Below, piece by piece: positions 27,087-37,272 of a DNA stretch of 64,000 nt; position 1 is the first letter of the stretch; the number at the start of each line of letters is the position of its first letter. Source of the stretch: an uncultured Oscillospiraceae bacterium (GTDB lineage Bacteria; Bacillota; Clostridia; Oscillospirales; Oscillospiraceae); NCBI GenBank assembly GCA_934597255.1, contig CAKTQV010000005.1:55712-119711 (forward strand). The letters are read 5' to 3'. The notes beneath the pieces are model-generated. The model worked only from the letters and a program-made list of their open reading frames with translations. It made no database searches and had not been told where the DNA came from. A program made the position numbers and the translations under genes.

Positions 27087-27836
27087 TCACAGCGCCTCGA
27101 AGCGATAGCGGGGCTTGCCGAGGCTCTTTTTTCCGTATTCGATCGCAGCTGTGGGACAATAACAGATGCAGGCCATGCAGTGGGTGCAGGCCTTGCCCCA
27201 GACGGGTCTGCCGCCCCGCAGGGTGATGTTGTTCATCGGGCAGCGCGCCGTGCAGCGGCCGCAGCCGGTGCAGGCGTCCCCGGCGGCGAAGGCGTTCGCC
27301 TTCACGCAGAAGGTATAGAACAGCGGGTTCACCGGCCCGCTCATGAAGCGGTCATAGAGGTTGCTGCGCGTCGGCGCGAAGGGCTGGCCGGCCTTGAGCG
27401 CGGCAATGGCGCGGTCGATATCCGGCTCGGCGCGCTCGACGATCTTTCGCGCCTCGTCCGCCTGCGGAGCGTCGAACATCGAGATATAGTTCTCGGGCAT
27501 GACGATCTGCGCCGTCCCCATGCAGGCGATGCCCTTCTCCCGGCAGAGCGCGCGGTTGTACCGCTCGGCATGGCCGATCTCGCTGCCGCAGGTCATGATG
27601 AACCACGCCCGCTTCGCGCCGCGCAGCTCCGTGCGCAGCAGCCAGTCCCGCACGACGCGCGGAATGCGCCACGCGTAGGTCGGCGTGACGAGCACAAGGC
27701 GCTCCCCGGTGTCGACGGGCGACGTGTCGCCCGACTTGATGCGGTCGTTCAGGCTGAGCAGCGGCTCGCCCAGCGCGTCCGCGATGCGCCGGGCGGCGTA
27801 TTGGCTGTTTCCGGTGCCGGAAAAATAGAAGATCAT
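27087..27836 (-). CDS. Flavodoxin-like domain fused to 4Fe-4S ferredoxin domain protein
   Basis: MIFYFSGTGNSQYAARRIA flavodoxin start. C-terminal CTGCGRCTARCP...CTHCMACICYCP (two Cys clusters). GAGGGAG RBS. Start ATG overlaps the def stop (ATGA). Confidence 0.7.
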   Translation of the reverse strand: MIFYFSGTGNSQYAARRIADALGEPLLSLNDRIKSGDTSPVDTGERLVLVTPTYAWRIPRVVRDWLLRTELRGAKRAWFIMTCGSEIGHAERYNRALCREKGIACMGTAQIVMPENYISMFDAPQADEARKIVERAEPDIDRAIAALKAGQPFAPTRSNLYDRFMSGPVNPLFYTFCVKANAFAAGDACTGCGRCTARCPMNNITLRGGRPVWGKACTHCMACICYCPTAAIEYGKKSLGKPRYRFEAL

Positions 27837-28243
27837 ATCAAAACTCCCTCGCAGTGGTCGATCTCGTGCTGGATGATCTCCGCCGTCCAGCCGGTGAAGG
27901 TTTTTATGCGCGTCTGGAGCTTCTCGTTCTGCCACTGCACCTTGATGCTCCGCCAGCGCTTCGTTTTCCGCGTCCCGGCGAGGGACAGACAGCCCTCCTC
28001 CGCCTCATACGCGCCGGACCGCTTCAGAATCACGGGGTTGAGCATGAGCAGATACGCGCCGTCACAGTCAACGGCGATGATGCGCTTGTTCACGCCGATC
28101 ATGTTCGCCGCCATGCCGACGCAGCCGTCCCTGTGCGCCGCCAGCGTATCGAGCAGATCCTGTGCCGCGCCGAGGTCGTCCGCCGCGGCGGGCGCAGCCT
28201 TCTGCGCAAGGAAAAACGTGTCTCTGCAAATTTCACGGACCAT
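27833..28243 (-). CDS. def: Peptide deformylase
   Basis: Motifs GVGMAANMIG (GxGxAAxQ), EGCLS and HEIDHCEG. Start trimmed to MVREICRDTFFL (GGGAGA RBS). Confidence 0.85.
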   Translation of the reverse strand: MVREICRDTFFLAQKAAPAAADDLGAAQDLLDTLAAHRDGCVGMAANMIGVNKRIIAVDCDGAYLLMLNPVILKRSGAYEAEEGCLSLAGTRKTKRWRSIKVQWQNEKLQTRIKTFTGWTAEIIQHEIDHCEGVLI

Positions 28244-28359
28244 AGCCTGTTCTCCCGGAATCGTCTTTTCCATATTGTATCAGCCGGCGGGACGATGCGC
28301 AAGGCCCGCGGCGCGTTTGCCGGAAGGGACGGCAGGGCGGATAAAGCGCCGCATATGCA

Positions 28360-28405
28360 GATTGCTTCTTTTTGTCAAATCTGGTATAATGGACAAAAGT
28401 TGTCC
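28360..28405 (+). promoter_or_regulatory. Near-consensus sigma-A promoter (TTGCTT-17-TGgTATAAT), followed immediately by a perfect inverted repeat GGACAA-AAG-TTGTCC (candidate operator). Drives the AT-rich island operon.
   Basis: TTGCTT 28362-28367, extended -10 TGGTATAAT 28382-28390, inverted repeat 28391-28405. Confidence 0.6.
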
Positions 28406-28417
28406 CATCAGGGAAAG

Positions 28418-28966
28418 ATGATGTGGTCATTTTCCCGAAACGCGGTATGGATTATGGAGCCTTTTCGGGGCGCTCCTGCTTTTATGGGAGGATTAATAGT
28501 AGTGTTTGGCTTTATCATTGCATCCTTAGGAGTTACGCTTTTAATTTCTGTGGGTTGTAGAAACTCGGTGGTCGACTCGGTGGTCAGAAGCATATTTGAC
28601 GTTATCATTTTGTACTCATCAGTTACGTTTTTAGCTTCTTGGGATTGTGGAGACATGACGGTCAAAAGGATAAAAGAAATTGGAATAAATCATCGATCTC
28701 GATATTATCCAGAACATTACATCACTCCAAAAAGGTGGATGAGGAAGCTCTTTGATATAAAGCAGCGCGTCATTCCACGATTCCTTTACTTTGAACTGTT
28801 TGTTTCTCTTTTCTATGTAATCCTTGGACTAATTAATATAGTGATCACCATTGCTGTAGGCGTTGATACGAACATTGCTAGTATTTTGTTCCTGTCTTAT
28901 CTCGGCCTGATAATGGTCAACGTAATATGTAATTGTATTATTTCCCATAGATTTAAAAGAAAATAG
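28418..28966 (+). CDS. Small polytopic membrane protein, unknown function (first island gene). The first ~20 codons are GC-rich, the rest AT-rich.
   Basis: 182 aa with 4 predicted TM segments (GLIVVFGFIIASLGVTLLISV, IFDVIILYSSVTFLASW, FLYFELFVSLFYVILGLINIVITIAV, ILFLSYLGLIMVNVICNCII). Start uncertain (ATG 28418/28421/28454). Confidence 0.45.
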   Translation: MMWSFSRNAVWIMEPFRGAPAFMGGLIVVFGFIIASLGVTLLISVGCRNSVVDSVVRSIFDVIILYSSVTFLASWDCGDMTVKRIKEIGINHRSRYYPEHYITPKRWMRKLFDIKQRVIPRFLYFELFVSLFYVILGLINIVITIAVGVDTNIASILFLSYLGLIMVNVICNCIISHRFKRK

Positions 28967-29037
28967 TAAAGGAAATGTAAGTTTACAGAATGATTTTGCT
29001 TACCTCAAATCAATTTGCGGGATTTGGAGTGATAGAT

Positions 29038-29526
29038 ATGACGATACAGGAAATCAGGATTTACTTAAAAAAGCACGGTTCCTTTGTATTTATGTATAAT
29101 TCCCAATGCTACACGCTCAAGAGAAGCCGATTCTTATTTTGTCCTCAATATAGCTTGATCGCAACCGATGCGTTGCCTCAACGCCGAAATTCGTTAGAGA
29201 AGCTGTGTGAGCAAGCTTATATCAGTAATGGCACGCTATTGATCGAAGTCATCCAGTATATTGAAATTCCTGAAGGAAATGATCCTTCGTGGGAAACGTA
29301 TGAGGCGATCCGGCACAGTGCTATAGTATACGGAAACGAGATCCATTTTTCATATCGTGGAAAAAGCTATTGGATCGCACAGACCAGTGATGGGTCATCT
29401 CATTTAAGCGATGATTCAGGAAACACGCAATGGTTCAGCTCTTGTCGTGACTTGTTTGACAAGGCACGCATTGATGGCTGCACGCTTGAGGCCATATGGG
29501 AAAAAGCAGCTGTGGACGCTTGTTAA
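29038..29526 (+). CDS. Hypothetical soluble protein (candidate orphan immunity protein)
   Basis: 162 aa from MTIQEIRIYLKKHG. GGAG RBS 8 nt upstream. No recognisable motif. Confidence 0.4.
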   Translation: MTIQEIRIYLKKHGSFVFMYNSQCYTLKRSRFLFCPQYSLIATDALPQRRNSLEKLCEQAYISNGTLLIEVIQYIEIPEGNDPSWETYEAIRHSAIVYGNEIHFSYRGKSYWIAQTSDGSSHLSDDSGNTQWFSSCRDLFDKARIDGCTLEAIWEKAAVDAC

Positions 29527-29608
29527 AGCCTGGCGCTCGTTGGAATGCATTGGTCTGTAATAGTAAGAGTCATTACAATACGGAAACCGTATATTTTGCA
29601 GCGGAGAG

Positions 29609-30244
29609 GTGATTACCATGATGAATAGGGTGTTGAGCGGAATTATCATCATAGTAATATGTATGGCAACATTGACAGGGTGCAATAATACGAAATTCGA
29701 CCAAATAACAGATAAAAATGATTTGCTTACAGAAAAATATCCAATTACTCAAATAGAAGAATTACAGAGCGCAGCAGAAGCCGGTGACATGACATTCTCA
29801 GATTTCAAGAAGGATTTTAATGTACAATGTATGCGGAAAACACATCAAGGGTATTATGTCGTGCTATTGCTGGAAGACGGCGGAAATGCTTTTGCTTTTT
29901 TTAACAGAAAAGACGCATTGATTCGTGTTATGGCTTTCGACTGTTTTAAAAGCAAAATAGAATTTCAAAATCAAGTGGCGGAAGAAATGCCCAAAAGCGA
30001 GGTGCTAAATTTGGATTCTAATACAATTATTGCACCTGTATCTGCGCAGGAAATAACGGCACATATTGTGCAGGAAGGCATTTTTGTGCTGAAATATTCA
30101 CGTTTCAGAGATGGGGAGATAATGGAAGACCCAATTGTAACTTCCATACAATTCATCGAAAATGAAGATATACCAACGAATGACGATCCTTTTATTAGAG
30201 ATGAGATCCCTTTTATTTTTGAATTTGATAAAGCAAGCACATGA
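29609..30244 (+). CDS. Hypothetical lipoprotein
   Basis: Signal peptide with lipobox MATLTGC. GGAGAGG RBS. 211 aa. Confidence 0.5.
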   Translation: MITMMNRVLSGIIIIVICMATLTGCNNTKFDQITDKNDLLTEKYPITQIEELQSAAEAGDMTFSDFKKDFNVQCMRKTHQGYYVVLLLEDGGNAFAFFNRKDALIRVMAFDCFKSKIEFQNQVAEEMPKSEVLNLDSNTIIAPVSAQEITAHIVQEGIFVLKYSRFRDGEIMEDPIVTSIQFIENEDIPTNDDPFIRDEIPFIFEFDKAST

Positions 30245-30483
30245 ACCTTAGCAAAATTTAATCATACCAGCAGGCAAAAACCGCAAATTATCATCTCTCG
30301 ATCGGTATGTGGGGCGCCGGCTTGTGGGAGGTATTGCGCGTGATTAAATTTACAAAAAGCCTTTTATTGAATCCGGCAGAAATATGGATTTCTGGTATTA
30401 GATGCAGCTTCAATAATATAATTAAAATCTCAACCGTGTTTGACTTCAAATGGATCGCAGATCGATGAAGGAGATGAAAATGT

Positions 30484-31011
30484 ATGGCGTCCATAATTCA
30501 TGTTCTGTCTTTGGGTTTGATCCCGATCGCCCTTCAGCTCATCTTTTGCTCTATCTACAAAAGTAATACCAAGGAGCTGCTCAAAAACCTTAGTGCGGAG
30601 CAGTTCGTTCTTCGTTTGCCCAAGGCATATATGTGGGTTTTTATTGTCGGAATCTTGACGAACGTGATTTTCTTGCTGATCATGGAATTCTTCCCAAATG
30701 GAACGGAAGCAGGTTGGGTATATGCGATATTTTCTATTTTCGGGATCTTCTGTGCTTTTTTTGCTTTATACACGCTGACGTGGAAGCTGGAATGCTTTCG
30801 GAATGAGGATTTTTTCATCTACCGACCGTTATTTGGAAAAGGCCGCAAGATCTTTTACCGTGATGTCGAATTCTATCGCATCGAAACGACCGGTACGGGC
30901 GGCATCATAATAAAAACGAAAACGGGCAGGTTTACTCTTGATCCGCATGTGACGAATAAGGAATTTTTCCTGGCGGTACTCTCAAAGCATGGTGTGCCGG
31001 AAAAGAAGTGA
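30484..31011 (+). CDS. Membrane protein with C-terminal bacterial-PH-like domain (candidate immunity protein)
   Basis: Two or three N-terminal TM helices. C-terminal FFIYRPLFGKGRKIFYRDVEFYRIETTGTGGIIIKTKTGRFTLDP resembles the bPH/YdbT-like fold. Similarity judged by eye. Confidence 0.45.
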   Translation: MASIIHVLSLGLIPIALQLIFCSIYKSNTKELLKNLSAEQFVLRLPKAYMWVFIVGILTNVIFLLIMEFFPNGTEAGWVYAIFSIFGIFCAFFALYTLTWKLECFRNEDFFIYRPLFGKGRKIFYRDVEFYRIETTGTGGIIIKTKTGRFTLDPHVTNKEFFLAVLSKHGVPEKK

Positions 31012-31107
31012 TCCCGCCTCCTGTCCGCGAAGTTTATCTGTGCAGGCAGGGGTAACGTTGCTCTGACTGGCAGTATGCCTATGATGCGAACGGCAGCCTG
31101 ACGGGTA

Positions 31108-32052
31108 TTGGGCGGAACAGCTGGACAGATGCCAAATACACCGGGTGCTCCGCTTACCATGCCTTACGGCGGCGCCGGGGCCGGAGCGGTCTGGCCGCCC
31201 ATTGCCGAGCTCAATCCCCTCCGCTACCGCGGCTATTATTACGACGCTGAAACGGGATTCTATTACCTCCAAAGCCGCTATTATGATTCCAAGATCGGCC
31301 GGTTTATCAACGCAGACAGCCAACTCGACACGGCCATATCCAGCGGCCTGAACCTGTTCTCCTATTGCGAAAATAATCCGGTGAACATGGTTGATACTAC
31401 AGGGCAATTACCGTTTTTTCTTATAACTGCAGCTATCGGTGCAGTGGTTGGAGCTGTTATCGGTGGTGTGGTTGCCGCTAAAAATGGCGGTAATGTTTGG
31501 TCAGGAATCGGAATTGGCGCAGTCGCAGGCGCGCTAATAGGCACGGGCGCAGGTATGGCGGCAGGTGCTGCATTGGCTGGTAGTATAACAGCAACAACGG
31601 GGGCTGTTATGGCTGGTGGAAGCACTTTGGTAGCAACTATTGGCACAGGCGGCCTTGGTGCAGGGGCAACATATATTGCAAAAAACTTGTCTCAAGCTGC
31701 CAATAATTTGGCCGGCGCAGCTCAAACTGCAGCAGACAAAATGCAAGAAGTTGCAGCCAAAGGAAAAGCCGGAGAAGCATTGTCAGGAATAGCCAAAAAC
31801 ACAACTCGTATTCCATCTATGACAGGAACAGCTTCTTATCGGATCCCAGACGGACTTGATGACGGTATGAGAATTTTAAGCGAAGTAAAGAATTACGCGG
31901 GTACTTTGTCGTACACAAATCAACTTAAGGATTTCGTGATGTGGTCACAAGCTAAAGGATTCCAAATGCACCTCTATACAAATGCTACGTTAACTGGTCC
32001 ATTGCAGCAGATTGTTGACAATGGCATAATTCAGTTATTCTCATTAGGATGA
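31108..32052 (+). CDS. Orphan RHS/YD-repeat core C-terminal tip fused to a polymorphic toxin C-terminal module: glycine-zipper membrane segment plus PD-(D/E)xK nuclease-like domain. The 5' side is truncated and frame-broken (31056..31107 encodes a YD repeat in another frame).
   Basis: NPLRYRGYYYDAETGFYYLQSRYYDSKIGRFINADS...LNLFSYCENNPVNMVDTTGQ is the conserved RHS core end. In a different frame just upstream: QYAYDANGSLTGIGRN (YD repeat). An 80-aa Gly/Ala-rich GxxxG tract follows. C-terminal RIPDGLDDGMRILSEVKNY carries a PD...ExK motif. The core part is GC-rich, the toxin part AT-rich. Confidence 0.65.
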   Translation: MGGTAGQMPNTPGAPLTMPYGGAGAGAVWPPIAELNPLRYRGYYYDAETGFYYLQSRYYDSKIGRFINADSQLDTAISSGLNLFSYCENNPVNMVDTTGQLPFFLITAAIGAVVGAVIGGVVAAKNGGNVWSGIGIGAVAGALIGTGAGMAAGAALAGSITATTGAVMAGGSTLVATIGTGGLGAGATYIAKNLSQAANNLAGAAQTAADKMQEVAAKGKAGEALSGIAKNTTRIPSMTGTASYRIPDGLDDGMRILSEVKNYAGTLSYTNQLKDFVMWSQAKGFQMHLYTNATLTGPLQQIVDNGIIQLFSLG

Positions 32053-32063
32053 GGAGAGAAAAA

Positions 32064-32738
32064 ATGAGCATTAAAGATATTAACAATGATCCGAAGCGGG
32101 TCAAAATGTGGCTCGACAGGGAAAAGGCCGCAGAGGAACAATACCGCAGGGACAACCCCGATTCTTTAATTCCTCTTTTTGTAAAGGAATTAAGAGAGCT
32201 GGGCTTTGAATTTGAAACCGCCAATCAGGCGGTCGGGCTCCTCCCGAAACACAAAAAAGCAATAGTACCTGTGGCCGTCAAATATTATCGGCTTGCAAAA
32301 GAGCTTGAAAAACCAAACGAACAAAACTATTTTCTGAGCTTTCTTCATATCAAAGGCCTTGATGATGTTGTTCCCATGCTGCTTGAGGACTATTACTCTG
32401 AGAAAACCGAAGATCTGACCCGCTGGTTCATATCGGACTGTATTTATCAAATACGGGCCAGGAATTTTGTAAAAGAATACCTGGACATTGTTTCAAGCCG
32501 GAAGTTCGGCCAAAACAGGCAAATGATCGTTTTGCTTCTTGGGAAGCTGAAGGAAGAGAGTGCCGTTCCGGTTTTAATTGATCTGTTGGAAGACGAAGAC
32601 GTTCGATTGCACGCCATCTGCGCGCTGGGTCAATTTAAGCGGGAAGAGTTTCGCCGTTACTTTGAGCGATTCCAGGATTCTGCACACCCCGGCTGGCGCA
32701 AATATGCCAGATCCGCCATAAAAAAGCTGGATGGATAG
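32064..32738 (+). CDS. HEAT-repeat protein, candidate cognate immunity protein of the RHS-tip toxin
   Basis: GAGGAG RBS within the toxin 3' end, start 12 nt after the toxin stop. HEAT-like repeat AVPVLIDLLEDEDVRLHAICALGQF. The longer track ORF starts at 32049, overlapping the toxin stop (ATGA). Confidence 0.55.
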   Translation: MSIKDINNDPKRVKMWLDREKAAEEQYRRDNPDSLIPLFVKELRELGFEFETANQAVGLLPKHKKAIVPVAVKYYRLAKELEKPNEQNYFLSFLHIKGLDDVVPMLLEDYYSEKTEDLTRWFISDCIYQIRARNFVKEYLDIVSSRKFGQNRQMIVLLLGKLKEESAVPVLIDLLEDEDVRLHAICALGQFKREEFRRYFERFQDSAHPGWRKYARSAIKKLDG

Positions 32739-32774
32739 CTTCTGTATTCCTGTGGATTTTCGGAGGGGTCCGGT

Positions 32775-33326
32775 TTGAAAAAAAGACAAATGACTATTGA
32801 AGAACATAAAATTGCCCCCGGCGCCCACACCATAACAGTCAGCAATGCTCGTTATCAGGAAGGTTTTCCAGACGCCATCGAAAAGATTATGAAAGTCTTC
32901 CTGGCCGATAAGGAGGTGTTTTTCGGCTTTTGCAGAACAGATGGCCTGAATTTAACACGAAAACAACAGAAAAAGCTCGAAAATGAGATCCCGGCATTCT
33001 TTCAAAAAACCGGTAATTTTCAAAGCCTGAGTGAATATTTGACAGCGGCAAGAACCCGGTTAGATGATCACAGCTGCCGCTATATACCGTTAATTTTTGA
33101 TTATTACCTTGAAACTATAATGTTTAACCCTGAGGTGGACTGGGAAATTTTTAAGCAATACCATTCCAATTATCAAAAGCACAGACTTGATGAAATGATT
33201 CTTGATCATTTTGCCGAAATGCTGTTTTACTATTTTGACAGCGGGGATCTTTTGATTTGCTTTAATCCGCAAATGTATAGTCCTGGGGCGGTCAGAAGTA
33301 TGATCGAGCGGGCCTTTGGCGTGTAG
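32775..33326 (+). CDS. Hypothetical protein (candidate orphan immunity)
   Basis: 183-aa ORF in the island, no motif recognised. Confidence 0.4.
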   Translation: MKKRQMTIEEHKIAPGAHTITVSNARYQEGFPDAIEKIMKVFLADKEVFFGFCRTDGLNLTRKQQKKLENEIPAFFQKTGNFQSLSEYLTAARTRLDDHSCRYIPLIFDYYLETIMFNPEVDWEIFKQYHSNYQKHRLDEMILDHFAEMLFYYFDSGDLLICFNPQMYSPGAVRSMIERAFGV

Positions 33327-33350
33327 TTTTTTTGGGGGGGGCGAAGGCAT

Positions 33351-33593
33351 TTGACAAGAACTGAATTCCTGGAGCTGCTGAAAAAATATAACATCAACGA
33401 AAGACTTGTGGTGTTTGATGACGCTATGGCAGAGGGGTATTGCGTTAGAAAAAACCATTTTCGCTGGGAAGTCTTTTTCCGGGAAAGAGGCGAAGAATAC
33501 GATTGCATCGGCTTTCCGTCCGAAAGCAATGCGCTGCAATACCTGTTTGATACGCTTTGCAGCGTATACGCAAAAAAGGGATCCAAAAAATGA
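33351..33593 (+). CDS. Small hypothetical protein (80 aa), TTG start preceded by a T7G8 homopolymer
   Basis: ORF-track start at TTG 33351. G8 tract at 33334-33341. Confidence 0.35.
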   Translation: MTRTEFLELLKKYNINERLVVFDDAMAEGYCVRKNHFRWEVFFRERGEEYDCIGFPSESNALQYLFDTLCSVYAKKGSKK

Positions 33594-33874
33594 AAAATCT
33601 CACTAAATTCATCATTGATCAGTCCATATTTCTTGTGCTTGGCATTGTATCAATAATAGGTCTCTATATTATCAGCGGTCCTGTTTTTACCTTGATCTCC
33701 AGCATTTTAATAATAATACCACCTTTTGCCTATCTTTGCCGGCGAACCCTTTTACTTCCGCTTGACCTGATTTTAGGCAAGGTCACCCAGACGGCCTACT
33801 TTAGAGACCAATGGCTTCCTGAGGATTTGGACTTCTTTAAAAATATGTATTGCCGCCAATGGAAGTTCCAATAA
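33590..33874 (+). CDS. Small membrane protein (94 aa)
   Basis: MKNLTKFIIDQSIFLVLGIVSIIGLYIISGPVFTLISSILIIIPPFAYL, two TM helices. ATGA overlap with the upstream ORF. Confidence 0.4.
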   Translation: MKNLTKFIIDQSIFLVLGIVSIIGLYIISGPVFTLISSILIIIPPFAYLCRRTLLLPLDLILGKVTQTAYFRDQWLPEDLDFFKNMYCRQWKFQ

Positions 33875-34033
33875 AAAAATAAAAATGGCCAGAATGGTCA
33901 GGCGCTTTGGCTATTAGCTCCTATTGTTTTCACGGCAGAGGACGTAGATAAGATCGTTCCTCCCCCAAAAGACGTGCTGCTTAGACTCAGCTACTTCAGA
34001 TTCTCAAAAATTTTGTTAGAATGGAGTATGGAC

Positions 34034-34597
34034 ATGGACAACGAGAAGAATGGTAATACTACCAAGTCAAGTCTTAGTAATGGATTAATGACAGATATCT
34101 CACTTGCAACTGGTCGGCCTGGTGATAAGCTATTGCGAGCGATAGTAAATGATGTTACGAAATCTGCCCCAAGGAGCGCTTTGTCCTCATTGGAAAAACT
34201 TGTCGAGTATTCTAATCAATTTTCAACCTTGGATGGATTAATAAGAGCCTATTTTAACCCAGTAATTGAAAAGAACAAGGGAAGTCAGGAGACCATGTAT
34301 CTTATTTCAATAACCACGATCTGGATCGCCCTTTTTACAAGGCCTATCGATTCGGCCAAACTTCAAGCCGACCGCCTTATTAAGGCAAAAAGAGAGTTTC
34401 AAATCTGCATGCTATACTATTGCTTTGGACTGCTTACTGGCACAATTCCTTGTAAAGGTGTTAGATTTGCCGCGAAGCATCGGTTCAGTTGGAAAAAAAT
34501 CCTCACAATTCAAGACGATGAATGGTGTATAAAACTGGCTAACGCCCTTATGGCCCATTTCGGCCTGGAGTATGCTCTGGCCGATAAACTGGTTTAG
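34034..34597 (+). CDS. Hypothetical protein (candidate orphan immunity)
   Basis: 187 aa from MDNEKNG. GGAG 7 nt upstream. Alternative starts at 33974 or 34028. Confidence 0.4.
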   Translation: MDNEKNGNTTKSSLSNGLMTDISLATGRPGDKLLRAIVNDVTKSAPRSALSSLEKLVEYSNQFSTLDGLIRAYFNPVIEKNKGSQETMYLISITTIWIALFTRPIDSAKLQADRLIKAKREFQICMLYYCFGLLTGTIPCKGVRFAAKHRFSWKKILTIQDDEWCIKLANALMAHFGLEYALADKLV

Positions 34598-34878
34598 CCA
34601 AACGGTATTATCAAATGAGCGCAGAACGAGAGATCAAAAGAATACATCCATATTCGGCCGCTACCATTGAGCCTCTTGAGAGGCGCTTTCGAAAATGGCT
34701 GGCGCTGGATGGAAACTGAAGTCCGTGAAGCGTTGGCGTTTTTCATTCGTTAAATGCCAGCGTTCTGTACGCCGGTATTTTATGTATTTAAGCCTTGATG
34801 CAGGCAACGGCTTCGTGGATGAATTCTCCTTGGGAATACCAAGTATCAATACCATCGCGCATTCGGGAGGTAACAAAT

Positions 34879-35314
34879 GTGAAGGATCAATTGATGAAGG
34901 AACAATTGATTGCCATCCTCTTACTATATCCTGTTTTTTTCTTTTATATTCGCAGCTTTTTGTCTAGTGAAATACTGTATCAACTCAACAACAGCGCCTA
35001 TAAAAAGCGAAAAAAAAGGACAGACTTTTATCGAATGGTTGTTCTACAGCAGATTTAGAGGAGAAATACCTAAGATACTGCGTGTGCTCTATTATTCTGT
35101 ATTGATTATCCACCCAGCTGGAGCAATTGCTTGTCTGCTCGTACATATTACAATGGGTTCATTGAATATTGGCAGAATAATACTAATTGGTATAGCTGCA
35201 TTTGATAGTATATGGAAGTTAGCAATCGACTTGCTTTTTTGGCAGAACCGCCCCGGCTGGGCGTTTGAACGATGGATCACAAAAAAGCGTGGTCAAAGGA
35301 AAAGAAGGAAATAG
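34879..35314 (+). pseudogene. Membrane protein interrupted by a +1 frameshift at an A8 homopolymer (35010-35017); could also be phase-variable or a sequencing error
   Basis: GGGAGG-N8-GTG start gives MKDQLMKEQLIAILLLYPVFFFYIRSF... ending after KKRKK. Downstream frame (34910..35314) continues a hydrophobic protein, ...GAIACLLVHITMGSLNIGRIILIGIAAF. Confidence 0.45.
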
Positions 35315-35359
35315 TTGGAACATCCCGCCAGTATGTATATTACCAGTGAGGAAATGTGT

Positions 35360-35689
35360 ATGAAACGATTGTCCAAAGAAGAGGCAAGTACGGTCAAAGA
35401 ATTCCTGAAAGTCCCTATTCCTGCGTATATCCTTGCATATAGTGACGGACAATTTGACCTTTTGGACTGTTACGAGGTGGCATTTACTTTTGCCATCGAC
35501 CTGCTGAGAGGAGGAAAGGTGGATCCAAATGCATCACCATGGGGCGATGGCCAAAGTGTAATATTTGACCCAGGCTATGCCAGGTTATTATTAAATATCC
35601 GACACGCCAATTTAAGCGCAGATGTCAACAATTATTGCGATTTGTTTTTAAAAGTTCTGGCTCTTTTTAAGGCCCATCTTGTGTCGTGA
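35360..35689 (+). CDS. Hypothetical protein (109 aa)
   Basis: GAGGAA RBS 6 nt before ATG. MKRLSKEEASTVKEFLK... Confidence 0.4.
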   Translation: MKRLSKEEASTVKEFLKVPIPAYILAYSDGQFDLLDCYEVAFTFAIDLLRGGKVDPNASPWGDGQSVIFDPGYARLLLNIRHANLSADVNNYCDLFLKVLALFKAHLVS

Positions 35690-35737
35690 ATTTTGCCAAT
35701 CGAAATTCTTCCGTATTGAAGCATACATACAACCACT

Positions 35738-35992
35738 ATGATAAGAGAAGCAAAAGTAATCGATATTATAAACAAGTATTTAAAATGCGCTCATGAATCC
35801 GATATTCATCGATATTATCCAGTTGCTGCATCCCAAATTTACGATGACAAGCAATTATGTGAGCGGATAATCGACTTTCTAGGGGATATATATATTGGCT
35901 CCGGCCTGGATGTGAACTATGAGGAAAATACAACCGGTGCAGAAATTCAGGATGCAATTACTTTTCTGGCCTTTTGCAACGGGAACGCATAG
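35738..35992 (+). CDS. Small hypothetical protein (84 aa)
   Basis: ORF in the island. No RBS check possible beyond AT-rich context. Confidence 0.3.
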   Translation: MIREAKVIDIINKYLKCAHESDIHRYYPVAASQIYDDKQLCERIIDFLGDIYIGSGLDVNYEENTTGAEIQDAITFLAFCNGNA

Positions 35993-36032
35993 GCTTACGA
36001 CTGCGACCTTGGATAACCGAAGGAGAGAACAC

Positions 36033-36461
36033 ATGTGGAACGAAATTGAAAACGAAAAAGATTTAAACCGTTTTATGGATACTGTGTGCTGGTTTCACGA
36101 CAGTTGTTTAAAGGAGCTTAAATACATCAGCGGTGCATATGTAAATGAAGAATTGAGTATGCTTCCAGTTAATACGCAAAGAATATTGAACATGATCATT
36201 CAACGGCAGTTTGAAAACCCATCTGTGGTTGAAATGCAATTTGTGGGACTAAAGTATTTAAAACTCTTTCCAACCGACGAAAGCTATACCTGTGAAATTC
36301 TGGATACGACTATGATTTTAGAAGAAGATCGCGTTTATTGGTGTGATTGCGGCGGGTTATCCGTAAAGGATATGGAAAACTACACAGGCACTGCAATATG
36401 TGCATCAAAGGTTCGGTGGAGAGCCGTGGATGAATATATTGGCCCAAAAGAAATTTATTGA
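36033..36461 (+). CDS. Hypothetical protein (142 aa), last island gene
   Basis: GAAGGAGAG RBS 5 nt before the ATG giving MWNEIENEKDLNRFMDTVCWFHDSC... Confidence 0.45.
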   Translation: MWNEIENEKDLNRFMDTVCWFHDSCLKELKYISGAYVNEELSMLPVNTQRILNMIIQRQFENPSVVEMQFVGLKYLKLFPTDESYTCEILDTTMILEEDRVYWCDCGGLSVKDMENYTGTAICASKVRWRAVDEYIGPKEIY

Positions 36462-36650
36462 ACATTTAAGCAAAATTGAGAAAATGTAAGAGTTAAAACG
36501 GCTTCCGTAAGTTCCGTCCACGCGTTATGGTATCACAAAGGCGTTGCTTCCCCGTACATAGCTGACGCAATACAGGCAATTCGGAACGGGACCCGGCCGC
36601 TGCGCGCAGGTTCAAACGCTGACCACAAAAAAATATCAGGAGTGTGAAAT

Positions 36651-37007
36651 ATGACCTTTATCGCTTACCCCAAATGCACCACCTGCCAGAAGGCGCGAAA
36701 GTGGCTGGACGAGCGCCAGATCGCCTATGAATTCCGCGACATCAAGCTGGACAACCCCAGCTATGACGAGCTGGCCGCGTGGTACCGGCGCAGCGGCCTG
36801 CCGCTGAAGAAATTTTTCAACACCAGCGGCCTGCTGTATAAGTCCATGGGACTGAAGGACAAGCTGCCCGGCATGGGTGAGGACGAGATGCTGAAGCTTC
36901 TCGCCGCGGACGGCATGCTGGTCAGGCGCCCGCTGCTGATAAGCGACGATTTCGTTCTCGTGGGTTTCGGGGAAGCCGCGTGGGCGGCGAAACTGAAAAC
37001 CGAATAA
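36651..37007 (+). CDS. ArsC/Spx/YffB-family thioredoxin-fold protein (arsenate-reductase-like)
   Basis: MTFIAYPKCTTCQKARKWLDERQIAYEFRDI, typical ArsC-family CxxC-like N-terminus. GGAG RBS. Confidence 0.75.
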   Translation: MTFIAYPKCTTCQKARKWLDERQIAYEFRDIKLDNPSYDELAAWYRRSGLPLKKFFNTSGLLYKSMGLKDKLPGMGEDEMLKLLAADGMLVRRPLLISDDFVLVGFGEAAWAAKLKTE

Positions 37008-37186: not shown

Positions 37187-37272
37187 TGGTGCCGGTGGCG
37201 GGACTTGAACCCGCACGCCTCATCGGCAACGGATTTTGAATCCGCCTCGTCTGCCAATTCCAACACACCGGC
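37187..37272 (-). tRNA. tRNA-Leu (anticodon CAA)
   Basis: Reverse complement GCCGGTGTGTTGGAATTGGCAGACGAGGCGGATTCAAAATCCGTTGCCGATGAGGCGTGCGGGTTCAAGTCCCGCCACCGGCACCA. Cloverleaf with 7-bp acceptor stem, anticodon loop UUCAAAA, long variable arm, GGTTCAAGTCC T-arm, encoded CCA. Confidence 0.9.

Follow-up and report, generated by a model that had tools for sequence, protein, structure and literature searches.

The window analysed here is a stretch of 64,000 nucleotides (nt) from an uncultured Oscillospiraceae bacterium of the human gut (contig CAKTQV010000005.1). At about 28,400-36,535 it contains an island of low GC (guanine plus cytosine) content, with 14 open reading frames (ORFs), all on the plus strand and of 80-314 amino acids (aa), between the peptide deformylase gene def and an arsC/spx-like gene. 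This island is very probably the local allele of a hypervariable locus of RHS orphan cassettes, which has degenerated and turned into a polyimmunity locus. Its contents would be a Tox-REase-7 DNase tip that cannot be delivered, the HEAT-repeat immunity gene cognate to it, and 12 other immunity genes left behind after deletion of their own toxin tips; o9, one of these 12, would be inactivated by a stop codon. The array would be transcribed co-directionally from a promoter ahead of its first gene, o1, and would render its carrier resistant to the RHS toxins of related strains and species. The remaining cassette could also recombine with a full-length rhs at another genomic site, albeit as a poor substrate.

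The initial annotation, prepared from the sequence alone, had already described a low-GC island of about 14 co-directional ORFs and interpreted it as an orphan-immunity array. Both proposals are borne out, the latter by family assignment, by the neighbourhoods of homologues in unrelated genomes, and by polymorphism among strains. The evidence also supports a refinement of that reading, in which the toxin family is named, an internal frameshifting deletion is recognized in the toxin gene, and one immunity gene is identified as a pseudogene.

Truncated RHS toxin and its HEAT-repeat partner

The orphan toxin ORF joins the end of an RHS core (31143-31400, ending ...NNPVNMVDTTGQ) to a Tox-REase-7 domain at approximately 31762-31986. 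The domain, at residues 219-293, matches PF15649 with 57.3 bits against a curated cut-off of 25, over profile positions 1-76 of 84, while residues 20-100 match TIGR03696 (Rhs_assc_core, E 2e-21). The segments YRIPDGLD and ILSEVKNY can be read in the tip and appear consistent with a PD-(D/E)xK-type motif. Together with HEAT_2 and DUF6560 in neighbouring genes, these assignments overturn the earlier statement that no protein of the island belongs to a nameable family. Gene callers place the start of the toxin ORF at 31129 or 31159.

Approximately 190 loci (designated by L numbers) were collected around RHS core ends and homologues and were searched with the island proteins. The same tip occurs in frame in L001 and L010, at 98-100% identity and with 150-220 more RHS residues; L001 is 99.9% identical to the window across 15.9 kb. 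Nucleotide homology to intact orphans begins exactly at 31143. Immediately before this position, three-frame translation reveals a remnant YD repeat (WQYAYDANGSLTGI...) that is equivalent to the YD repeat coming first in the leader of orphans at related loci and is out of frame with the RHS sequence that follows. As judged from these alignments, the window toxin is truncated at its 5′ end, and an out-of-frame deletion within it, joined at 31143, has removed about 0.57 kb of its own leader. The core homology left in the window orphan amounts to 258 nt, versus about 0.8 kb in the orphans of L010 and L192. No RHS shell was found upstream of the toxin ORF, and without a shell or an export part the tip cannot be delivered as it stands.

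The proposed coupling of this tip to a HEAT-repeat immunity gene is well sustained. The o6 gene starts 11 nt 3′ of the toxin ORF when the callers' 224-aa start is taken rather than that of the longer, 229-aa ORF. In L197, an unrelated gut contig from Nepal, a 58%-identical REase-7 RHS tip is likewise followed after 11 nt by a 62%-identical HEAT protein, and the pairing is also present in L010 (98% identity). HEAT repeats are listed among the immunity partners of Tox-REase-7 by Zhang et al. 2012 (PMC3482391). This recurrence supports the prediction that o6 is the cognate immunity protein of the tip.

It had also been proposed, as a check, to look in the rest of the genome for a full-length rhs or LXG gene matching the core fragment. 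No full-length rhs was encountered in the 64-kb window, where no ORF exceeds 868 aa, or in any fully covered def-arsC interval (the window and L191/L192), where only orphans occur. None was present among the best 120 database relatives either, all of which are at most 774 aa. Because assemblies break in RHS repeats, these absences are weak evidence.

Between the core cleavage motif and the toxin domain lies a glycine-/alanine-rich hydrophobic, glycine-zipper-like segment (31401-31760). Similar segments were observed in the C-terminal toxin (CT) regions of many tips (L020, L060, L073, L087, L123, and L197), and they may form a module for membrane entry that is common to these RHS toxins of Gram-positive bacteria.

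Immunity genes and their RHS neighbourhoods

Each of the 13 non-toxin ORFs of the island is represented, in unrelated genomes or metagenomes, by a homologue within an array of RHS tips. For ten of them (o1, o2, o3, o4, o7, o8, o9, o10, o13, and o14) this homologue starts within about 40 nt of the stop codon of an ORF whose end is an RHS core plus a CT; those of o11 and o12 lie within RHS-tip arrays. The 13 ORFs displayed no mutual similarity of note in cross-searches. Besides the HEAT gene, o4 (DUF6560) is the only one assigned to a Pfam or NCBIfam family, and no Pfam Imm model was matched by any of the 12 toxin-less families. The suggestion that several represent new toxin or immunity families thus stands as regards missing Pfam/NCBIfam models, but each has relatives beside RHS tips elsewhere.

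Homologues of o14 (55-80% identity) are found immediately 3′ of RHS tips in ten loci, with a dN/dS (ratio of non-synonymous to synonymous substitution rates) of 0.07-0.09. Wherever the tip sequence was read, the partner belongs to one CT family, ...PDGTPK..YGPDG..DYNH..PHDH, which has no Pfam match and was observed in L011 (1900-2382), L054, L069, L084, and L010 (2-841). Homologues of o7 lie 15-37 nt 3′ of RHS ORFs in L097 and L100-L104, including one of 2,176 aa, and are again associated with one CT family (...FHCHPPGH), which, as observed in L097, L101, and L104, ends in ...WDPAHGFHCHPPGH and has no match in Pfam. An immunity family thus recurs with the same CT family in the case of o14 (loci with the tip read), o7 (three CT-bearing loci), and o9 (two), as expected of cognate pairs. 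Pfam recognized only TNT among the CT domains paired with immunity homologues: this domain (PF14021) characterizes the RHS tip found 3 nt 5′ of the o8 homologue (E 1.5e-23) in L197.

Among the remaining links, the o2 homologue in L073 (74% identity; dN/dS 0.23) overlaps the stop codon of an RHS-CT ORF, and those of o1 in L020 (35% identity, E 5e-17) and o3 in L113 (33% identity over 218 aa, E 2e-33) follow such an ORF directly. Homologues of o9 are directly 3′ of RHS ORFs of 1,902 aa (L060) and 2,279 aa (L123). In the alternative allele L191/L192, o10 itself immediately follows an RHS orphan whose CT is PD-(D/E)xK-like, and the same holds in L188-L190. The o13 homologue (38% identity, E 1e-13) begins 1 nt 3′ of an RHS orphan ORF in L087, and that of o11 is located 1 nt 3′ of an RHS-CT ORF in L197 and just upstream of an orphan in L121. 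One gene separates the o12 homologue (26% identity, E 3e-8) from the 2,279-aa RHS of L123, and o12 stays beside o11 in L192. The DUF6560 family of o4 comprises 285 clusters at 50% identity; its profile aligns with the gene that comes straight after an RHS-CT ORF in L147 (hhalign probability 93%, 163 columns).

In deep comparisons, dN/dS values of 0.07-0.23 indicate strong purifying selection and hence real genes. Between close alleles the ratio is about 0.7-1.6, on only 8-39 substitutions. The o9 gene has a nonsense codon where P0177, a variant with 36 member sequences, has Leu, and its frame beyond this TAA runs to 34027, on into o10.

Several side observations concern individual families. 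Comparison of o11 (34976-35314) with L192 8150-8488 gave 33 non-synonymous versus 6 synonymous changes (dN/dS about 1.6, on small counts), an excess that could reflect either diversifying selection or relaxed constraint; o10 and o12 showed close-allele values of 0.7-0.9. Residues 111-172 of o2 (29320-29505) match phrog_3711, a family of unknown function (E 3e-11), and this small C-terminal domain therefore occurs in phage genomes too. The bPH-like domain once proposed for one of the membrane proteins received no profile support: none of 62 family members of o4 matched a bPH profile, and hhalign against a bPH_5-type immunity protein reached a probability of 8%. A single-sequence AlphaFold2 (AF2) model of o4 was too poor to use, with a predicted local distance difference test (pLDDT) score of 58; the o7 model reached 91 and matched nothing among solved folds. 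About 12 DUF6560 relatives of 300-315 aa (P0218-P0220, P0226, and others) match the query twice, which represents a tandem duplication within one polypeptide and recalls 'polyimmunity proteins'. In L052 (9293-11185), one 630-aa frame runs directly from a truncated tip of the o14-partner RHS family into an immunity domain of the o14 type, apparently as the result of a deletion that joined toxin and immunity. Finally, a 59-aa ORF with a weak Resolvase (PF00239) match lies between an o7-family immunity gene and the following RHS orphan in a Firmicutes metagenome-assembled genome (MAG; L104 3918-4097 and L107 596-775).

Alleles of the def-arsC interval

Among contigs of the same species whose flanks are 94-100% identical, at least five arrangements of the def-arsC interval were distinguished. 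The window-type allele is found in L009, L090, and L091, and its left end is matched by L092 and L093; several independent samples contain this arrangement with 99.9-100% identity. The L001 allele carries the un-deleted orphan, L002 has another RHS tip with a DUF5071 gene, joined at 34147, and L195 possesses an additional lipoprotein gene. L191/L192 cover the whole interval and present def, o1, a hairpin element, a 414-aa RHS orphan, o10, o11, o12, two other small genes, a 30-nt element, and arsC. L094/L095, which cover the left end only, show o1, the hairpin element, and the RHS leader as in L191/L192 but at 94% identity. The first gene, o1, is 97.5-100% identical across the same-species contigs.

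The alleles share exact breakpoints, at 28,968, just after o1, in all those covering the left side and at 36,536 in all those covering the right. The comparison proposed to distinguish an acquired island from ordinary core genes revealed a locus that is not uniform within the species. As for the left junction, which had been placed inside the first ORF, the drop in GC does start at the 5′ end of o1, but the strain-variable part starts after this gene.

The right breakpoint coincides with a boundary element that, in full, consists of a hairpin with a 13-15-bp stem followed by a conserved 30 nt. The window retains the 3′ arm of the hairpin and the conserved part, CAAAGGCGTTGCTTCCCCGTACATAGCTGAC, as a unique copy. 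In L010, L094/L095, and L192 the full element precedes each RHS orphan; occurrences of the element in these loci are at L010 1339-1384 and 4868-4906, L192 5828-5883 and 9864-9920, and L094/L095 1-135 (reverse strand). Where alleles differ in the stem, pairing is kept by a compensatory change from T:A to A:T (GCATCGCC... versus GCAACGCC...), and the hairpin folds at −29.6 kcal/mol (z −3.5). No T-run follows the hairpin, which hence does not qualify as a canonical terminator. No copy of the element was found in the arrays of other species.

Cassettes would be gained, lost, and swapped by homologous recombination, generating different alleles in different strains, with the GC-rich RHS core segments and the repeated hairpin-plus-30-nt element as likely substrates. 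Recombination between core segments is the route by which alleles form at enterobacterial rhs loci (PMC3967940).

Much longer arrays of the same kind were observed in other gut MAGs (L082 6300-12900 and L197 1-9929), with cassettes common to several species; L197 carries REase-7, TNT, and Ntox37 tips in a row. The tip that replaces the left part of the window arrangement in L002 is near-identical to one in L082.

Composition, boundaries and flanking genes

Overall, the island has a GC content of 42% versus 64% outside, so that the sharp drop described earlier is real but the figure of 38% is not. In 500-nt windows, values range between 0.36 and 0.54 across 28,500-36,499 and between 0.58 and 0.73 in the flanks, with no second trough of this kind anywhere in the window. 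The RHS core piece has 56-58% GC, and tips and immunity genes 36-47%. Such low GC values are typical of Rhs tips that are exchanged laterally. Independent gene callers applied to identical metagenome contigs predicted island genes on the plus strand only. The tight spacing noted initially holds for most intergenic gaps (0-82 nt), but three are larger (239, 153, and 312 nt), and instead of several ATGA overlaps one is certain (33590-33593), another (32049-32052) depending on the choice of start codon.

Upstream of o1 and divergent from def, a promoter-like site combines a perfect extended −10, TGgTATAAT (28382-28390), with a weak −35, TTGCTT, which matches the consensus at 3 of 6 positions; for this reason it was passed over by the consensus promoter scan. 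Its promoter function is predicted from these motifs. As to the single promoter proposed initially, promoter-like sites in the AT-rich island number 27, against 17.7 ± 4.7 in shuffled sequences, and the gaps of 239 and 312 nt are to be considered as well.

As stated initially, no integrase, phage, or conjugation genes are present, which was confirmed within 10 kb on both sides of the island, and no att-like direct or inverted repeats flank it in the window. Searches of the island ORFs against Pfam, NCBIfam, PADLOC, and PHROGs returned no match suggesting phage, defence, or housekeeping roles: PADLOC gave no meaningful matches, PHROGs none with a known function, and viral contigs scanned with o3, o4, and o7 contained no relatives. 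The tRNA-Leu gene was the sole Rfam match at a permissive threshold; it follows the ArsC/Spx-family gene and is itself followed by an Hsp20 gene. The coordinates of all features are compiled in Table 1. The conserved non-coding stretch listed there has no Rfam match, and its counterpart in L082, a different MAG of Hadza origin, has an immunity gene on one side and the next RHS orphan on the other.

Table 1. Features of the def-arsC island and its flanks in the window
Feature	Position	Strand	Description
def	27833-28273	minus	peptide deformylase; left flank
Promoter-like site	28362-28390	plus	TTGCTT, 17 nt, TG-extended TATAAT; predicted promoter
o1	28418-28966	plus	multi-pass membrane protein, 182 aa; 38% GC; immunity-type gene; in every allele
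o2	28990-29526	plus	soluble, 178 aa; predicted orphan immunity gene
o3	29609-30244	plus	lipoprotein, 208-211 aa, lipobox LTGC; predicted orphan immunity gene
Conserved non-coding stretch	30316-30460	.	between o3 and o4; 90% identical to L082 8510-8655
o4	30484-31011	plus	membrane protein, 175 aa; DUF6560 (PF20197, E 4e-11); probable immunity gene
Remnant YD repeat	31064-31142	plus	5′ leader of orphan, out of frame with following RHS
Truncated orphan RHS toxin	31108-32052	plus	RHS core end, glycine-zipper hydrophobic linker, Tox-REase-7 domain
o6	32064-32738	plus	HEAT-repeat protein (HEAT_2, E 2e-8); predicted immunity protein; possible earlier start 32049
o7	32775-33326	plus	soluble, 183 aa; predicted orphan immunity gene
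o8	33351-33593	plus	80 aa; predicted orphan immunity gene against TNT-domain (NAD-glycohydrolase-type) RHS tip
o9	33590-33874	plus	predicted membrane immunity gene with nonsense codon (TAA 33872-33874)
o10	34028-34597	plus	187-189 aa; predicted orphan immunity gene
o11	34910-35314	plus	membrane, 134 aa; predicted orphan immunity gene
o12	35315-35689	plus	soluble, 124 aa; probable immunity gene, weakest evidence
o13	35738-35992	plus	84 aa; predicted orphan immunity gene
o14	36033-36461	plus	Cys-rich, 142 aa; predicted orphan immunity gene
Right boundary element	36536-36566	plus	3′ arm of hairpin plus conserved 30 nt; unique in window
ArsC/Spx-family gene	36651-37007		right flank
tRNA-Leu(CAA)	37187-37272	minus	right flank

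Alternative explanations

Some observations weigh against a degenerate cassette locus turned polyimmunity locus. No full-length rhs partner was found, which leaves the role of recombination reservoir without a demonstrated partner. The links of two genes to RHS tips are weaker, that of o4 being a profile-profile match and that of o12 a 26%-identical protein encoded by the second gene 3′ of an RHS ORF. Moreover, the decay of the window allele, visible in the toxin deletion, the o9 stop codon, and the dN/dS between close alleles, could reflect relaxed selection. Carried to its end, this would make the island dead wreckage, a decaying former RHS toxin array under no selection and with no present function; a toxin both truncated and frameshifted, the nonsense codon, close-allele ratios of 0.7-1.6, and the lack of a full-length rhs at the locus all agree with such an outcome. 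It is nevertheless unlikely: the toxin domain is intact, as are 12 of the 13 accessory ORFs, short spacers and a common orientation have been retained, the arrangement recurs almost unchanged in independent samples, and the close-allele ratios depend on few substitutions. There is also a small probability that the truncated tip and its HEAT partner act as an intracellular type II toxin-antitoxin pair, stabilizing the island or modulating growth, with the other genes as bystanders. Nuclease domain and immunity gene are both intact and adjacent (overlapping or 11 nt apart), the product has no export part, and a role of this kind reported for a Salmonella orphan Rhs (PMC7043789) offers a precedent. 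This addiction or regulatory module, however, would account for 2 of the 14 genes, ahead of the toxin ORF there is no start codon equipped with a convincing ribosome-binding site, and other alleles lack the pair altogether, so that it does not hold the locus in place.

Two further explanations invoke mobile or defence systems. In an integron-like platform, the hairpin-plus-30-nt element would be the site of a recombinase encoded elsewhere, and the def-arsC interval of these Gram-positive gut bacteria would capture RHS tips and immunity genes. Such a platform would fit the position of the element ahead of every RHS orphan seen in the species and at the common right breakpoint, as well as its strong fold and compensatory stem change, but it is decidedly improbable given that no recombinase or integrase is nearby, that other species' arrays lack the element, and that the window has a single half-element and none between its immunity genes. 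Breakpoints also fall inside genes and RHS homology (31143 and 34034/34147), as in homologous or illegitimate recombination, and the hairpin may be no more than a terminator or a flank duplication. It is more improbable still, to the point of being negligible, that an anti-phage defence island, or a remnant of a prophage or integrative and conjugative element, has captured an RHS fragment. Low GC, strain variability, and small genes of unknown function are common ground, and a tRNA-Leu gene is located 0.7 kb to the right; yet the island does not abut it, direct repeats, integrases, recombinases, and informative PADLOC or PHROG matches are all missing within the scopes given above, and the 13 ORFs map without exception to RHS-tip neighbourhoods.

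Implications and relation to known systems

To our knowledge, RHS antagonism among the uncultured but abundant Clostridia of the human gut has hardly been explored by experiment. A single locus here provides 13 candidate immunity families, 12 of them without a family-specific Pfam or NCBIfam model (o4 being the exception). Their neighbours elsewhere point to partner tips that include one TNT NADase, two REase-like nucleases, and several domains with no Pfam match, and concrete toxin-immunity pairs to test emerge from the locus. In metagenomes, these strain-specific alleles with their sharp boundaries could be used as markers of competition at strain level, and they illustrate the decay of an orphan-toxin array into a stockpile of immunity genes alone.

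The architecture itself is already known from rhs orphan arrays and heterogeneous polyimmunity loci; it is the host group that is unstudied. The enterobacterial Rhs orphan cassettes, such as rhs-orphan of Salmonella Typhimurium (PMC3967940) and the E. coli Rhs elements, share with this locus a 5′-truncated rhs that keeps its 3′ core end, a variable CT toxin with an immunity gene immediately 3′, a GC-rich core with an AT-rich tip, and strain variation through recombination in core homology. The differences are that the host is a Gram-positive-type gut anaerobe rather than a proteobacterium bearing a type VI secretion system (T6SS), that no full-length rhs lies upstream at the window locus, that most of the homology segment is gone from the surviving orphan, and that toxin-less immunity genes outnumber cassettes by 12:1.

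Heterogeneous polyimmunity loci (Zhang, de Souza, Anantharaman, Iyer, and Aravind 2012, PMC3482391) are likewise tight, tandem arrays of unrelated immunity genes in the same orientation, with contents that differ by strain, and are read as pre-emptive defence against the toxins of non-kin. At least four tandem, same-strand, closely spaced, unrelated immunity genes define them, and the island has 13 such ORFs. They are also defined as never being interrupted by toxin cassettes, whereas the window contains one truncated REase-7 cassette (31064-32052) and other alleles contain complete orphans; in addition, its 12 toxin-less families have no Pfam Imm match. The acquired interbacterial defence (AID) clusters of gut Bacteroidales (Ross et al., 10.1101/471110) are, like the island, strain-variable, laterally acquired orphan-immunity arrays of the human gut, thought to protect against the contact-dependent toxins of neighbours. 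They counter T6SS effectors and reside on mobile elements, whereas this locus concerns RHS tips and is chromosomal, between housekeeping genes, with no recombinase or mobility genes within 10 kb. By the logic of polyimmunity and acquired defence (PMC3482391; 10.1101/471110), the array genes are predicted to be protective.

Among Firmicutes, the esaG/tsaI arrays of Staphylococcus aureus (PMC9484751) are also strings of immunity genes reshaped by homologous recombination between repeats. They consist of paralogues of one family beside a type VII secretion system, in contrast to the 13 unrelated, RHS-associated families of the window. The locus is best placed midway between an orphan-toxin array and a polyimmunity locus, departing from each in one defining trait, and it leaves current concepts unchanged while extending them to a new host group.

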